Shown: in pieces, positions 54,421 through 59,428 of the stretch
Layout of the letters: each line of letters begins with the position of its first letter
How positions within the stretch are numbered: position 1 is the first letter of the stretch
Assembly (NCBI GenBank): GCA_964550425.1
Contig: CAZJZB010000001.1
Location: 3,509 to 67,508 of the forward strand
DNA: 64,000 nucleotides
From: an uncultured Candidatus Saccharibacteria bacterium
Lineage (GTDB): Bacteria > Patescibacteriota > Minisyncoccia > Phycocordibacterales > Phycocordibacteraceae
Direction: 5' to 3'
Position numbers and translations under genes: made by a program
The notes under the pieces: model-generated
The model's database searches: none
Told to the model about the DNA's origin: nothing
The model's input: only the letters and a program-made list of their open reading frames with translations

Positions 54421-54489
54421 ACGGTTAATGTTCCTTAACATCGCCTCATATCTTCAGTATAGCGTGTGTATGTGTGGTATAATCCGCGC

Positions 54490-54783
54490 ATGAACCCGAC
54501 GCTTGAAGAGATATCGGAGAAAGCACGACCCGTATTTGAAAAATATGGTGTGAAGCGTGCGCGCATCTTCGGCTCCTATGCGCGTGGCGAGGCTCGTCTT
54601 GATAGCGACATTGACCTTCTCCTCGATTTTGAAAAACCACTCGGTTTTGAGTTTTATACTGTCCATGAAGAACTTGCGGAAAAGCTCGGTCGCGAGGTGG
54701 ATGTAGTGACCGAAGGAAATATGAATAAATTTCTCCGTCCGTACATCATGCCTGATGTACGTCCACTGTATGAAAAGCGATAG
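54490..54783 (+). CDS. MNT-type nucleotidyltransferase antitoxin (type VII TA)
   Basis: RIFGSYARGEARLDSDIDLL. Confidence 0.65.
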   Translation: MNPTLEEISEKARPVFEKYGVKRARIFGSYARGEARLDSDIDLLLDFEKPLGFEFYTVHEELAEKLGREVDVVTEGNMNKFLRPYIMPDVRPLYEKR

Positions 54784-55123
54784 TCCCTACATTGCACAGA
54801 TGCTCGAATGTGCTGCGAAGATAGGGCGATATGTCGGCGAGATGAGTTACGAAGAGTTTCTCAAAGATGAAAAAACACAGAGTGCAGTACTGATGCAATT
54901 GCAGCAGATGGGCGAAATGGCAAAGCGAGTTTCTGAGAAAACGAAAACCGAAGTCGATGTGCCATGGAAGAAAATTGCTGGTTTCCGAGATGTAGTCGCA
55001 CATGACTATGTAGATGTTGATCTTGAGAACGCGTGGAAGATAATTTCTCTCGATCTAACTCAAACCGAGGCACCACTCGTTGCATATCTTAAGGAGCACC
55101 CTCTTCCAGAAATTAAAAACTAG
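54770..55123 (+). CDS. HepT-like (DUF86) RNase toxin
   Basis: Rx4HxY motif (FRDVVAHDY); overlaps the MNT gene by 14 nt. Confidence 0.65.
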   Translation: MKSDSPYIAQMLECAAKIGRYVGEMSYEEFLKDEKTQSAVLMQLQQMGEMAKRVSEKTKTEVDVPWKKIAGFRDVVAHDYVDVDLENAWKIISLDLTQTEAPLVAYLKEHPLPEIKN

Positions 55124-55192
55124 GACATCAGATGTCCTAAATTCACTTTACCTTATCATCCCACTATAGGTTACGTTAAGGTAAAGTTGCCG
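55124..55192 (+). promoter_or_regulatory. two strong hairpins in the long tuf leader
   Basis: TAGGACATC-a-GATGTCCTA and ACTTTACCTTA-N21-TAAGGTAAAGT; a TCCGACTCGAGTCGGA palindrome lies at 55321. Confidence 0.4.
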
Positions 55193-55387
55193 GCCTTCCT
55201 AAATTACATCAAATATGTTGGTAGGGTAGTTGCATTTATAAGTGTGTTTGCGTATAGTAACCCCAACGCATCTTGGCGTCGCTCTTTGGCTTCCTGCTGT
55301 TATTAGTGGCGAGCCGGAGTGTATTTCCGACTCGAGTCGGATTATTAATTCGTGATTTCAAATTATTAGTTAGATTAACCGATCACT

Positions 55388-56587
55388 ATGGCAGAATTCA
55401 ATCGCAGCAAGCCGCACATGAACGTCGGCACCATCGGTCACGTGGACCATGGAAAGACGACTCTCACGGCAGGCATCCTGCATGTGCTCTCAATGTTGAC
55501 GGCGGCGGGCTACTCCGCTCGCGTCGAGGGAGTTGATAAGATCGACAGCGCGCCGGAAGAGAAGGCGCGTGGTATTACTATTGCGCTCCATCACTCGGAG
55601 TACGAGACACCGAATCGTCACTACGCGCACATCGATGCGCCGGGACACGCCGACTACATCAAGAACATGATTACCGGCGCCGCCCAAATGGACGGAGCCG
55701 TTCTTGTGGTTGCCGCGACCGACGGTGTGATGCCGCAGACGCGCGAGCACATCCTGCTCGCCAAGCAAGTCGGTCTCAAGAAGCTCATCGTCTTCCTCAA
55801 CAAGGTAGACATGGTAGCCGAGGCCGATCTCATCGACCTCGTCGAGGAGGAAATCCGCGAGCTCCTGACCAAGCAGGGCTACGACGGCGCAAATACCCCA
55901 ATTATTCGCGGTTCTGGTCTCAAAGCGCTTGATGCCAAGGACGCTAGCGATGAATGGGCGGTTAAGGTTAAAGGACTCGTTGATACGATGGACACATACT
56001 TCGATCAGCCGGAACGTGAAGTATCTAAGCCGTTTCTTATGCCCATCGAGGACATCTTCTCGATTGAAGGTCGTGGCACTGTTGTCACCGGTCGTATTGA
56101 GCGCGGTGTCGTAAAAGTTGGTGAGGAAGTTGAGATCGTCGGTATCAAGCCGACGGCGAAGACGACTGTCACCGGCATTGAAATGTTCAACAAGCAGCTT
56201 CAGGAAGGTATGGCAGGCGACAATGCCGGCATCCTTCTGCGCGGCACCAAGAAGGAAGATGTGCATCGCGGCCAGGTCCTCGCGAAGAGCGGTTCGGTCA
56301 CGCCGCACACCGACTTCGAGTCAGAGGTCTACATCCTCTCCAAGGACGAGGGAGGCCGTCATACGCCGTTTTTCTCCGGCTACAAGCCGCAGTTCTATAT
56401 CCGCACGACCGATGTTACCGGCGAGGTAACTCTTGCGGAAGGTAAGGAAATGGTCATGCCGGGAGACACGGTCACCTTCAAAGTGAAGCTCGTCGCGCCG
56501 GTCGCTCTTGAAGAGCAACAGCGCTTCGCCATCCGCGAAGGCGGGAAGACGGTTGGCGCTGGCGTTGTGACGAAAATTACCGCGTAA
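55388..56587 (+). CDS. tuf: elongation factor Tu
   Basis: [21 protein letters not shown]. An atypical insert [14 protein letters not shown] follows the P-loop. Confidence 0.95.
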
Positions 56588-56606
56588 GTTACGGGCAGCT
56601 AACAAC

Positions 56607-57047: not shown

Positions 57048-57195
57048 CAGCGCTTCCAAAAACACAGCATCTACGTCGTTGCAGTTCCGAAAATTTCTTC
57101 CGTCGTACATTTGAGTACGCCTCCAGAAATTTTCGTCCCGCGCCTCGTATCTGCAGTATTTTTGAAACCGCTAAAATCCAAAAGATAGCCAAGAA

Positions 57196-57230
57196 AACAC
57201 ATAACCGCCCGCAGGGGCGGTTGTGTGTTT
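57196..57230 (+). terminator. rho-independent terminator after rpsJ
   Basis: AACACATAACCGCCC-gcag-GGGCGGTTGTGTGTTT. Confidence 0.7.
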
Positions 57231-57275
57231 CAGTAAAATCGCCTACTGTGCACAAGCAACACAGCCCATCCAATA

Positions 57276-59282
57276 TTGTGTTGTATGATAACGGACATGC
57301 GGCATTCGATTCTTTTCATACTCGGGATACTTCTTTTAATCCCTTCGGTTTCTGGCGCGGTTTCTTGTATCGATCTCGATCGCACCCTCTCCCTCAATAT
57401 GAAAGGAGATGATGTTGCCAAGTTGCAGGAATTCCTCCGCGACAATGCAGCATATACGGGGAAAATCGGTGGGAACTTCGGGCGCCTAACCGAAGCGGCG
57501 GTGAAAAGATGGCAGCAAGGAAAAGGCATTACTGCGACCGGTGCCGTCGGACCTCTCACCAGAAATGCAATGAGATGTTCCGCGCAGAAACAAACGTCAA
57601 ATTCTTCGCAGAAGGCGGGAATCGCAACAAAGAACTCCTCTCCCGGCACTCTTTCTCGTGGTGCTAAAGGACCTGATGTTTCCGAACTTCAGCGTTTCCT
57701 AATACAACAAGGATATCTCGCTGCGGGGAACGATTCCGGTTTTTTCGACGCGGCGACCGAAATGGCTGTACAGAAGTGGCAATCAAGTCACGGGCTCGTC
57801 TCACAGGGCTCTCCGGAGACGACCGGTTATGGCGCTGTCGGGCCCCGCACTAAGGCGGCAATTGCCGCCGCGCGCGCCAAGGGCAACACATCTTCTTCCA
57901 GCCCTAGTTTGTCTGGTTCGTCGCAACCATATACCCAATCCGAAGCCATCGCGCTTATTCGGAAGAGGATTATGCCATCAGTGGTCCAGATCCGATGCAC
58001 CGATCGTGATGGTGGGGAGGAATCAGCCATTGGTTCTGGAGTGTACACTTTTGATCCCGCCGCTAATAAGCCGATAGTTTTTACGAATGCCCATGTTGTA
58101 TTAGGGAGTGACGGTAAATTCCACGGATGCAATGTTTATTTTCCTATTGCATCTAACGGATCATTTTCCTTTTACGATTCTGTATATAGTGCAATGGAGG
58201 CAACACTCTATCATAATGTCGAGTCCCGTATTGACGGCGAAATTGTAAATGGAATCGATTCTGCGGTGTTGACACTAACCGCTCCGGGAGTCGATGCGCA
58301 GGGTCTCCAGTTCCCGTTCCCCCCAAAGCAGGAAGACGCAATCAAAGCGATAATTGAGCTCTGTCGTAAAACCGATCCCATCAATATCGGGGACGCTATC
58401 TACAATATTGGATATCCGGGGGTAGGAGGGTCGTCTCTTACGCTTTCGCAAGGAGTGGTTAGCGGTTTCCTGGGACGATTCAATGAAAAAATAAAAGTTT
58501 CAGCAGGTACTTTTTCGGGTAATTCCGGCGGTATCGCTATAGGGCAGGACAACATTTGCGAGTATGGCATTCCAACGTCAGGAATAACCGATGCACGGGT
58601 TGGCGGGAATATTGGATTTTTGCTCAGCTCTGCTTTCATCAATACCTTCACAGAAAATATGACGGGCAACTTGACATACTCCCCTCCCGATATTGCGTCA
58701 GATCCGAACACCTACCTCACCCGCACCTATGCATTTCCTGGTTTCAGCATGAGCTATCCGGAACTCTGGACGATATCGCAGGTAGCGCCCGATGCGGATG
58801 GTGATTGGGCGGTACGCTTCTCGCCGCCTTCCGAGGGCGTTTTGGATGCTTTCACTGAGTCAATAAACGTTACTATATTACCCAACTCAACCCAAGATGA
58901 TCTAGCGAAGGAAATTGCATATTTCAAGAACCTTGCCGTTACGCAAGACCCAACGGCCATAGAGGGAACCGTAATTCTCGGCGGAAGGGTTCAGGCGGAC
59001 AATATTTTCTACAGTGACACGACTTCTGGAAGGGAAGTTCTCACAAGGTTTACGATATTCCTAGAAAATGGGCATATATATACGATTAGCGTTCGTATTA
59101 GTCCAGACAGTCCCAATTACATGAAATATGGTCGGGTATCAAATAACATGCTCAAGTTGATCAAGTTTAATATCTTAGCGCAAATCAGACAGATTCTGCA
59201 GACCGCGAACGCACTTACCGCATTCGAAAGTTTCTTCAAAGCCCTGCAAAATGGTCTCAAGACAAAGTTGGTTGAGTATTAG
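57276..59282 (+). CDS. secreted protein with two peptidoglycan-binding (PGBD) domains and a trypsin-like serine protease domain
   Basis: Signal peptide; PGBD repeats (...DVAKLQEFL...GPLTRNAM; ...DVSELQRFL...GPRTKAAI); protease TNAHVV ... GNSGGIA. Confidence 0.7.
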   Translation: MCCMITDMRHSILFILGILLLIPSVSGAVSCIDLDRTLSLNMKGDDVAKLQEFLRDNAAYTGKIGGNFGRLTEAAVKRWQQGKGITATGAVGPLTRNAMRCSAQKQTSNSSQKAGIATKNSSPGTLSRGAKGPDVSELQRFLIQQGYLAAGNDSGFFDAATEMAVQKWQSSHGLVSQGSPETTGYGAVGPRTKAAIAAARAKGNTSSSSPSLSGSSQPYTQSEAIALIRKRIMPSVVQIRCTDRDGGEESAIGSGVYTFDPAANKPIVFTNAHVVLGSDGKFHGCNVYFPIASNGSFSFYDSVYSAMEATLYHNVESRIDGEIVNGIDSAVLTLTAPGVDAQGLQFPFPPKQEDAIKAIIELCRKTDPINIGDAIYNIGYPGVGGSSLTLSQGVVSGFLGRFNEKIKVSAGTFSGNSGGIAIGQDNICEYGIPTSGITDARVGGNIGFLLSSAFINTFTENMTGNLTYSPPDIASDPNTYLTRTYAFPGFSMSYPELWTISQVAPDADGDWAVRFSPPSEGVLDAFTESINVTILPNSTQDDLAKEIAYFKNLAVTQDPTAIEGTVILGGRVQADNIFYSDTTSGREVLTRFTIFLENGHIYTISVRISPDSPNYMKYGRVSNNMLKLIKFNILAQIRQILQTANALTAFESFFKALQNGLKTKLVEY

Positions 59283-59385
59283 ATTACACGTTAGACAACA
59301 TACCTGCGGGACCTCCTATTTTCTTGCATTTTTAGACAGCTCGTGTAGAGTAGTCGAATCGCTATGTCCCCTTGGGACCTCCAGC

Positions 59386-59419
59386 AAATCGCACGACAGC
59401 GATTGCTGTCGTGCGATTT
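59386..59419 (+). promoter_or_regulatory. 15-bp-stem hairpin immediately upstream of rplC
   Basis: AAATCGCACGACAGC-gatt-GCTGTCGTGCGATTT, ending 9 nt before the rplC ATG. Confidence 0.5.
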
Positions 59420-59428
59420 GCATACAAA

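Follow-up and report, generated by a model that had tools for sequence, protein, structure and literature searches.

The 64,000-nucleotide stretch of DNA analysed here (the window; contig CAZJZB010000001.1 of assembly GCA_964550425.1, from an uncultured Candidatus Saccharibacteria bacterium) carries the str/S10 ribosomal gene cluster on its plus strand. The list of open reading frames (ORFs) and Pfam matches give the order rpsL-rpsG-fusA, an MNT-HepT toxin-antitoxin gene pair, tuf-rpsJ, a gene for a protease with peptidoglycan-binding (PG-binding) and trypsin-like domains, and rplC-rplD, followed by rplW, rplB, rpsS, rplV and rpsC. The closest relatives, which are metagenome-assembled, bear the labels Candidatus Kaiserbacteria, Paceibacterota or Patescibacteria, and we assign the window to a Kaiserbacteria-like member of the Paceibacteria (candidate phyla radiation). 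Judged from consensus signals the cluster is divided into three predicted transcription units, rpsL-rpsG-fusA, tuf-rpsJ and rplC-rplD onward, and each of the two non-ribosomal gene sets lies between the end of one unit and the promoter of the next. Below we develop the view that the str/S10 cluster consists of these three units, that the gaps between them are exchange sites across the whole clade, and that the rplC unit opens with a leader RNA for which feedback by a ribosomal protein is proposed; as a whole we hold this account to be likely. The features which define the units are as follows.

51074-51102, plus strand: promoter-like site of the rpsL-rpsG-fusA unit, TTGCGT-N17-TATAGT (promoter-pattern match)
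51133-51546, plus strand: rpsL (ORF list, Pfam)
51581-52084, plus strand: rpsG (ORF list, Pfam)
52134-54281, plus strand: fusA (EF-G), last gene of unit 1 (ORF list; tblastn identity of 68-91% in relatives)
55230-55258, plus strand: promoter-like site of the tuf-rpsJ unit, TTGCAT-N17-TATAGT (pattern match; kept upstream of tuf in relatives)
55388-56587, plus strand: tuf, unit 2 (Pfam, ORF list)
56607-57047, plus strand: rpsJ, unit 2 (Pfam, ORF list)
57195-57230, plus strand: terminator hairpin of rpsJ, 16-bp stem (fold z = -6.2)
59324-59351, plus strand: promoter-like site of the rplC unit, TTGCAT-N16-TAGAGT (promoter-pattern match)
59358-59428, plus strand: rplC leader RNA of about 70 nt (covariance model R1, covariation, fold)
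59429-60043, plus strand: rplC (ORF list, Pfam)

The pattern TTGCRT-N15-19-TAKAGT has only three matches in the 64 kb (51074, 55230 and 59324), against a chance expectation of 0.12, and all three are on the plus strand and placed upstream of rpsL, tuf and rplC respectively. The rplC site is found 77-116 nt upstream of rplC in most of the relatives which bear the leader. The gene rpsJ begins 19 nt behind tuf, close spacing being the rule in almost all relatives, and lacks a separate leader; that it ends in its own terminator, as the initial annotation had stated, is borne out by the 16-bp stem at 57195-57230. This terminator is conserved, and in relatives TTTTC and then the rplC promoter, starting with its -35 box, come directly after it; in the insert-free locus L010 its T run passes straight into the -35 box, reading GGTTGTGTGTTTTCTTGCAT. 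Because the rplC promoter and leader stand behind the rpsJ terminator and before rplC in insert-free relatives too, the predicted operon boundary between rpsJ and rplC predates the insertion of the protease gene. The rpsL unit likewise opens with a leader (51103-51132), comprising a short GC hairpin (CCCGCG/CGCGGG) and then the U tract UUUUCUAA just before ATG 51133. No Shine-Dalgarno sequence precedes rplC or any of the 15 genes in the ribosomal region of the window (51100-63000). We propose that a strong promoter of one common type and a short leader with secondary structure open each unit, and that the gaps between units would tolerate extra genes since insertion there breaks no operon.

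The initial annotation had described the locus as two insertions into a gene order among the most conserved in bacteria, and had suggested comparing the synteny of fusA-tuf-rpsJ-rplC in relatives. We sampled 80 S10-centred loci from GTDB with one genome per species (211 loci were fetched overall), and obtained the following distances between neighboring genes.

fusA-tuf: 58 loci, median 896 nt, at least 500 nt in 45, maximum 6637 nt
rpsJ-rplC: 70 loci, median 333 nt, at least 500 nt in 30, maximum 5992 nt
rpsG-fusA: 42 loci, median 390 nt, at least 500 nt in 20, maximum 2144 nt
rplC-rplD: 66 loci, median 15 nt, at least 500 nt in none, maximum 136 nt
rpsL-rpsG: 39 loci, median -30 nt (an overlap), at least 500 nt in none, maximum 145 nt

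The supposed near-invariance of the order thus does not hold in this clade, as the fusA-tuf, rpsJ-rplC and rpsG-fusA junctions are interrupted in a large share of the relatives; the synteny comparison found the order not to be universal and the gaps to be variable, with those of some close relatives empty. The 247 ORFs of at least 60 aa located in the gaps fall into 221 BLASTP clusters, with 73% of them co-oriented with the ribosomal genes, and the cargo is almost never common to two species. Among 150 gap proteins the Pfam content is diverse: PG_binding_1 is the most frequent domain (8/150), further families include PKD, pilin-like N_methyl, PaaX, NUDIX, transporters and glycosyltransferases, and the 25 most frequent Pfam or PHROG families of these proteins include no integrase, transposase or recombinase family. 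Several cargo genes in the gaps of relatives (L001, L005, L007, L010 and L015) have a strong Shine-Dalgarno sequence (AAGGAGG), and others look leaderless. Close relatives of the window likewise differ in these gaps. Both are empty in L002 (171 and 159 nt; tuf 94% identical) and nearly empty in L068 (402 and 216 nt; tuf 96% identical), L018 (tuf 96% identical) has other cargo after fusA, and L004, L003 and L006 carry 2.3-6 kb after rpsJ; in L002, L004 and L013 the tuf promoter lies 10-30 nt after fusA. Judged by the short empty junctions of L002 and L068, both gene sets of the window are indeed additions to an ancestral layout of terminator followed by promoter, but they are not one-off events. 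Since the clade carries different, mostly unrelated genes at these positions while several close relatives have none, we conclude that the gaps are long-lived exchange sites.

The second gap of the window ends at the rplC leader. A 15-bp hairpin had previously been noted here (59386-59419, 9 nt before rplC); it is real but larger, with 17 perfect pairs and a 4-nt loop at 59384-59421, ending 7 nt before the ATG. This hairpin, P2, is part of a leader which in the window consists of CGCUAUG, the helix P1 (59366-59378), CCUCCAGCA, P2 and AUACAAA, then the AUG, and which folds at -39.5 kcal/mol (z = -8.1; none of 200 shuffles was as good). Over the 120 nt before rplC the relatives resemble one another, be the rpsJ-rplC gap 159 nt or 5992 nt long, the common order being the promoter, CGCUAYG, P1, a GGWCC(W)AUrG or GGWCCUCCAG motif, a long P2, and the AUG after 7-10 nt. 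As MAFFT misaligned the 5' domain of full-length leaders, we instead seeded a covariance model (R1) from six similar sequences. R1 scores 86.8 bits at 59360-59428 and yields one plus-strand match per locus, always upstream of rplC, in 17 GTDB loci (16 of them at E <= 1e-4) and additionally in L087 and L145; its other matches are reverse-strand reads of the palindrome or generic hairpins. Across 15 sequences 92% of the cells are paired, versus 81% in shuffles and 29-47% in slid controls, and eight pairs change on both sides (35 cells), with none of 500 shuffles reaching the observed values. Hence the proposed check of whether the hairpin is conserved upstream of rplC in relatives came out positive, as it is kept with or without an insert and with compensatory changes. 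An anchor-based analysis of P1 in 37 loci gave the following.

P1 position 1: G:C in 37 of 37
P1 position 2: U:A in 26, A:U in 10
P1 position 3: C:G in 19, non-canonical A.G in 12
P1 position 4: C:G in 34
P1 position 5: six standard pair types

These observations establish that the leader, which lies downstream of a promoter-like site, is a 5' element specific to rplC that is conserved and covaries. Its core motif occurs at most 160 nt from rplC in 33 of 70 loci (background 0.011 per 160 nt) and is absent from all 17 loci with an rpsJ-rplC gap below 130 nt; therefore, the leader goes with the split of rpsJ from rplC. The architecture downstream of the motif varies: in the group of the window P2 is a single long hairpin without a U tract, in more distant relatives there are two hairpins, of which the second is GC-rich and followed by UUUAUUUUU immediately before the AUG, and a few relatives have P1 only, together with CCAAUAGACAAC located 12 nt from the AUG. 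In Rfam 15 nothing relevant was found at E up to 5 in 50500-64000, with no family reaching E = 5 on the leader of the window, and none reached the gathering threshold in L002, L029 and L087; a control with the E. coli S10 leader was also negative, so these searches speak for curated families only. When metagenome contigs were scanned with a degenerate pattern, four of the 120 matches listed lay 45-92 nt upstream of rplC, far above chance, although a pattern this loose says nothing about how widely the leader is spread. Two further candidate elements were considered and set aside: an upstream ORF (AUG 59364, 22 codons, UGA overlapping the rplC AUG) was rejected as many relatives have CGCUACG or CGCUAAG and the frame otherwise differs, and a P0 pairing (GCUA with UGGC or CAGC) enclosing P1 is compatible with the sequences, but hardly varies on either side and competes with pairing at the foot of P2, and it is not claimed.

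The hairpin is a good candidate for the regulatory element it had been suggested to be. The role of the leader would most likely be feedback control of the rplC operon by a ribosomal protein encoded in that operon. Because uL4 regulates the E. coli S10 operon through L4-dependent termination and translational repression exerted at its leader (PMC3616713), uL4 is, by analogy, the first candidate ligand. Under this model the protein would bind the core formed by P1 and the motif and make the hairpin downstream of it more stable. Where that hairpin is followed by a U tract, as in the more distant relatives, this would terminate transcription, and in the window, where it is not, it would more likely hinder initiation at the nearby AUG, which lacks a Shine-Dalgarno sequence.

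The cargo of the first gap lies in a segment that runs from the fusA stop codon to the tuf -35 box (54282-55229), with the following features.

54475-54483, plus strand: extended -10 promoter TGGTATAAT, 6 nt before ATG 54490 (sequence reading)
54490-54783, plus strand: MntA-type nucleotidyltransferase antitoxin, 97 aa (Pfam PF01909/PF18765)
54770-55123, plus strand: HepT (HEPN/DUF86) RNase toxin, 117 aa (Pfam PF01934)
55145-55187, plus strand: perfect 11-bp hairpin behind the cassette; shared by L087 and by L037, the latter without the toxin-antitoxin pair

The presence of a complete type VII HepT(DUF86)/MNT pair at 54490-55123, claimed in the initial annotation, is confirmed by Pfam matches (NTP_transf_2, PF01909, E = 4e-14, 53.1 bits versus a cutoff of 21; HepT-like, PF01934, 1e-22, 80.2 bits versus a cutoff of 23.5), by the upstream position of the antitoxin gene and its 14-nt overlap with the toxin gene, and by two motifs read from the translations, GSX10DXD in the antitoxin (GSYARGEARLDSDID) and RX4HXY in the toxin (RDVVAHDY), which are signatures of class I HepT/MntA systems (PMC7641770). 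PADLOC matches the nucleotidyltransferase only (PDC-S09), and both proteins miss the NCBIfam equivalog cutoff of 60 (MntA_antitoxin 52.3 bits, HepT_toxin 47.4 bits). Going by these scores, they are divergent members of their superfamilies rather than equivalogs. The 117-aa form of HepT (start 54770) is the annotated one and is identical to database protein P0053, and exact look-up of a 122-aa form (start 54755) gave no match. We accordingly classify the occupant of this gap, from its predicted products, as a class I HepT/MntA toxin-antitoxin cassette. The promoter is conserved as TGTGGTATAATCCG(C/A)G(C/T)ATG in L085, L086, L087 and L088, and the cassette mRNA is probably leaderless. The same pair stands right after fusA in L085/L086 and L087/L088/L089, with MNT 93-95% and HepT 85-88% identical to those of the window; the fusA genes of the L085-L089 loci are 86-93% identical, and tuf of L087 95%. 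L087 has hicB and small ORFs in its rpsJ-rplC gap and a leader almost identical to that of the window. Copies 85-95% identical in the same gap of other lineages contradict a private recent invasion by the toxin-antitoxin pair and indicate, at the level of sequence comparison, that the cassette was acquired before this organism split from some of its sister lineages.

The second gap holds a single cargo gene.

57231-59319, plus strand: inserted segment of about 2.09 kb with the protease gene only, boundaries ambiguous by about 3 T (versus L010, L002 and L009)
57297-59282, plus strand: secreted protein, 661 aa (Pfam, homologue alignment)

Comparison with L010 maps the insert between the T run of the terminator (57230) and the TTTTC (59319-59323) before the -35 box. 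The initial annotation had described a 668-aa secreted protein with PG-binding and trypsin-like domains. Its domains stand (PG_binding_1 twice, 1e-23; Trypsin_2, 33.4 bits versus a cutoff of 27.6), and its length needs correction, as the 668-aa ORF (57276-59282) likely has its true start at ATG 57297, giving a 661-aa product identical to database protein P0001. The protein comprises a signal peptide, for which a hydrophobic N-terminal segment MRHSILFILGILLLIPSVSGA was recognized by eye, two PG_binding_1 domains, an S1-type serine protease domain and a PsbP-like C-terminal region; 17 homologues all retain His266, Asp321 and Ser410 (TNAH, GxDxA and GxSGG) as well as four cysteines. The protein probably works as an endopeptidase outside the cytoplasm, in association with the cell wall. 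The gene is preceded by TATGAT-N7-ATG, with TATAAT-N7-ATG at the same place in L081, and its mRNA is probably leaderless. L081 encodes a homologue (74% identity) also after rpsJ and the same upstream terminator, and the segment is 80% identical in nucleotide sequence from the terminator on, which points to acquisition of the protease, too, before this organism split from some of its sister lineages. Homologues with 58% and 42% identity are placed elsewhere. The 58%-identical one, in L082 (contig SRR22388013_1472102), adjoins rpsI at the edge of a different ribosomal operon, which hints that operon edges in general collect such genes. Upstream of the terminator, about 128 nt (57048-57175) that separate the rpsJ stop codon from the conserved AAAGAyNGCCAAGAAA-terminator block are without counterpart in close relatives and hold two imperfect direct repeats (CCGAAAATTTCTTCCGTCGTAC / CCAGAAATTTTCGTCCCGCG). 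Read as a decayed hicA, this segment gives a single 14-nt exact match to L081, which scores 28, within the range of shuffled sequences (mean 17.8, maximum 30).

As to how cargo enters such gaps, two features directly after fusA are informative.

54293-54329, plus strand: perfect 11-bp inverted repeat directly after fusA, no U tract, z = -2.5; also in L068
54329-54352, plus strand: second, non-functional fusA 3' end, GAC ATC ATC GCG AGC CGG AAG TAA (DIIASRK and stop), a recombination footprint

The first had been taken for a fusA terminator followed by the toxin-antitoxin pair; the hairpin is present, but a terminator role is doubtful given its z-score and the missing U tract. The 3' arm of this repeat is itself part of the old coding sequence. 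Remnants of the fusA 3' end are also seen in L068 and L037, and that of L068 is identical at 33 of 33 nt to the functional fusA end of L085 and at only 23 of 33 to its own. In L081 a copy of the rpsJ 3' end with its terminator stands on either side of hicBA, and a C-terminal fragment of an rve-type transposase lies beyond the protease. As the 3' ends of flanking genes are duplicated, we infer homologous recombination as the probable route of exchange: cargo would enter and leave by recombination anchored in the extremely conserved flanking genes.

Several other explanations of the arrangement have to be weighed against this. The gaps could instead be filled by dedicated mobile elements, be they insertion sequences, islands carrying an integrase or elements inserting site-specifically in the manner of cassettes, and the transposase fragment of L081, a protease homologue of 42% identity neighbored by ParE and Replic_Relax genes in L083, the potential of the duplicated gene ends to be att-like sites and the standing of toxin-antitoxin cassettes as classic mobile cargo all speak for them. 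However, integrase and transposase families are missing from the frequent families of the gap proteins, the two inserts of the window have no recombinase gene, inverted-repeat ends or short target duplications, their only duplications being long copies of flanking gene ends, and the L068 remnant, an exact copy of the fusA allele of another lineage, is a better fit to allelic recombination; we therefore regard this explanation as unlikely. The reading of the initial annotation, namely two recent invasions of a universally conserved operon in which the protease parted an L4/L3-type attenuator from rpsJ, agrees with the absence of both gene sets from the same sites in the 80 GTDB relatives, with the lower G+C content of the toxin-antitoxin region (44-46% versus 52-59% in the flanks) and with the conservation of the hairpin. 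It is nonetheless improbable: the junctions are interrupted across the whole clade, the same pair and protease stand at the same sites in diverged sister lineages, rpsJ sits close behind tuf and lacks a leader, and insert-free relatives already have the promoter and leader between the rpsJ terminator and rplC, so that L002, L009, L010 and L068 contradict it outright. A role of the hairpin as nothing more than the protease gene's terminator is very improbable, even though the hairpin is the sole strong hairpin downstream of the protease stop codon, with no other terminator in 59282-59428. It lies downstream of the rplC promoter (33 nt from the -10 box), has no U tract (its 3' flank is AUACAAA), is not listed by a terminator scan, and is kept with compensatory changes in at least 17 loci without the protease. 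Finally, the source is evidently a metagenome-assembled genome, which might invite the suspicion of a chimeric assembly or binning artefact. Yet two independent Logan contigs (L084 and L090, run SRR8863434) match the window with 100% identity over rpsJ-protease-rplC and over fusA-MNT-HepT, the junctions are collinear with those of relatives down to terminator and promoter, and the same pattern recurs in dozens of genomes from different studies. The junctions are thus no accident of assembly, the chance of which is negligible, and the claimed gene order with both gene sets in place is borne out by Pfam as well as by these independent assemblies.

The function of the leader admits one more serious alternative, namely a structural 5' element without a protein ligand that protects the mRNA from decay or sets the initiation rate at a start codon lacking a Shine-Dalgarno sequence. 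The same design is seen in the leaders of rpsL (a hairpin and UUUUCUAA before the AUG) and of tuf (a hairpin and a U-rich tract), none of the 15 genes in the region has a Shine-Dalgarno sequence, and covariation proves structure rather than ligand binding. On the other hand CGCUAYG and GGWCC(W)AUrG persist over four architectural variants down to 72% tuf identity, the A.G at P1 position 3 is conserved despite being non-canonical (12 loci), such conservation beyond pairing looks like a specific recognition surface, and the motif occurs at rplC and not at the other leaders; a leader with no ligand is hence a possibility that we rate as rather unlikely. Several points do weigh against our own interpretation. 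The candidacy of uL4 is purely an analogy with E. coli, where the leader precedes rpsJ and not rplC; as P2 of the window has no U tract, attenuation cannot be claimed for this genome; and as the leaders of rpsL and tuf likewise end in a hairpin with a U/A-rich tract, and no gene here has a Shine-Dalgarno sequence, the structure could be accounted for just as well by a general function in stabilising the mRNA or in initiation. A scan of E. coli rRNA, as a stand-in for Kaiserbacteria rRNA, for mimicry of a protein's rRNA site, a frequent though not indispensable trait of such leaders, gave eight weak matches of hairpin plus motif, including ...GCCAAUGGC at 23S 2686-2709, which is chance level. 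Moreover, promoters, terminators and leaderless starts are consensus readings only, kinship was gauged by protein identity rather than by a tree, and recombination is deduced from footprints only, with L081 having a transposase fragment next to its protease. We nevertheless retain ribosomal-protein feedback at the rplC leader, and recombination through flanking genes at the gaps, as the preferred interpretation.

Two further elements of the fusA-tuf region deserve description.

54373-54445, plus strand: one of the three copies in the window of a nested-palindrome repeat (core TATCCACAAAATACTGCTATAGCAGGAAGTTATGGATA at 54383-54420)
55265-55387, plus strand: conserved tuf leader, AACGCATCTTGGCGTCGCTCTTTGGCTT...TCCGACTCGAGTCGGA and a U-rich tract (motif, RNAalifold)

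The tuf leader (AACGCAUCUUGGCGUCGCUCUUUGGCUU...) forms four helices, the last of which (UCCGAC/GUCGGA) is followed by the U-rich tract. Its core motif is found in 22 of 71 tuf-upstream regions, about 19 of which are from close relatives (tuf at least about 89% identical) with a long conserved stretch. RNAalifold gives 25 pairs, four with double changes, and the conservation is mostly of sequence with little covariation; no Rfam family matched it. In more distant relatives tuf is preceded by another conserved leader, GGCUGGAAGGCGCUGCGCGGG.... The repeat copy before the toxin-antitoxin pair had been recognized correctly (54373-54445). The repeat is about 70 nt long, occurs in three copies on the same strand (29623-29691, 44057-44124 and 54373-54445) with the pattern TATCCACwAAATACTGCTATAGCAGrAA..GTGGATA..GAACATCC, and among the 211 fetched loci is found only in L090, which is the same organism. 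One copy lies in frame inside a KsgA/RsmA-like ORF (43800-44600, ...HGDIRKYPLNTAIAENSGYHVVANIPYY...), recalling the Rickettsia-type palindromic elements, which insert into coding sequence. Elsewhere in the window, a promoter-like site with a hairpin and a U tract between rplB and rpsS (62087-62151) suggests a further putative internal boundary in the rplC operon. S10 (146 aa) and uL4 (261 aa) each have a Lys/Ala/Thr-rich N-terminal extension of about 45-55 residues (regions 56607-56750 and 60045-60200) whose length is variable among relatives. The sole Rfam matches in the whole window are four tRNA genes on the minus strand (22501-26224).

Candidate phyla radiation organisms are uncultivated and have tiny genomes, and to our knowledge almost nothing is known about the regulation of ribosome synthesis in them. 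The leader before the rplC operon provides a concrete, conserved and covarying RNA that can be tested in vitro with recombinant uL4 or uL3. More broadly, the ribosomal protein cluster is a standard marker block for phylogeny and for the curation of metagenome-assembled genomes, and that three of its junctions are hypervariable accessory-gene sites in Paceibacteria matters for curation based on synteny. The gaps also point to where reduced genomes keep flexible genes, among them toxin-antitoxin modules and exported enzymes that bind peptidoglycan and plausibly play a part in attachment to a host, and the duplicated gene ends offer a handle on DNA exchange between such cells. A more far-reaching proposal, which we make tentatively and with less than even confidence, is that the leader represents a new ribosomal-protein-responsive RNA family (uL4/uL3, with attenuator and translational variants), the first for the candidate phyla radiation, and that together with the likewise uncatalogued tuf leader it marks operon boundaries acting as clade-wide exchange sites, at which toxin-antitoxin modules and cell-envelope proteins would be swapped between species by recombination via the flanking translation genes.

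Parts of this organization have parallels in known systems. Escherichia coli K-12 has 17 kb (chiA-bfd-bfr-gspA-O) between tufA and rpsJ, and thus likewise non-ribosomal genes at an operon boundary. There, however, the boundary is tufA/rpsJ, whereas here tuf and rpsJ are tightly linked, the boundaries are fusA/tuf and rpsJ/rplC, and the content of the gaps differs in almost every sampled species. Linkage of tuf with rpsJ and a separate operon led by rplC have reportedly been found in cyanobacterial and archaeal str clusters. The window resembles these in that S10 would be transcribed with EF-Tu and the large ribosomal operon would begin at rplC, and differs in that a promoter and leader also part fusA from tuf and in that the junctions hold variable cargo. 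The predicted toxin-antitoxin cassette is like the class I HepT/MntA pair of Shewanella oneidensis (SO_3165/SO_3166) in its upstream, overlapping antitoxin gene, its combination of PF01909 with PF01934 and both motifs. Unlike that pair it is small, divergent and below the NCBIfam cutoffs, and it resides in an inter-operon ribosomal gap with a conserved promoter and a probably leaderless mRNA. The rplC leader shares with the E. coli S10 leader its position as a structured 5' leader of the uL3-uL4-uL23-uL2 operon with a hairpin near the first start codon, and in the more distant relatives the last hairpin with its U tract is reminiscent of L4-dependent termination. The E. coli leader, however, is restricted to Gammaproteobacteria, precedes rpsJ and has five hairpins in about 170 nt, whereas that of the window, located before rplC, fits two hairpins into about 70 nt and has no evident common sequence with it, and R1 finds nothing in the E. 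coli S10 region. Eckert & Weinberg 2020 (PMC7247131) include no leaders from Parcubacteria or the candidate phyla radiation, but describe L4-Archaeoglobi, a candidate leader upstream of rplC-rplD-rplW-rplB with L4 as the presumed ligand. Although that motif, unlike the leader of the window, is archaeal, in both cases rplC is the first gene and the evidence consists of conservation and covariation upstream of a ribosomal protein operon.

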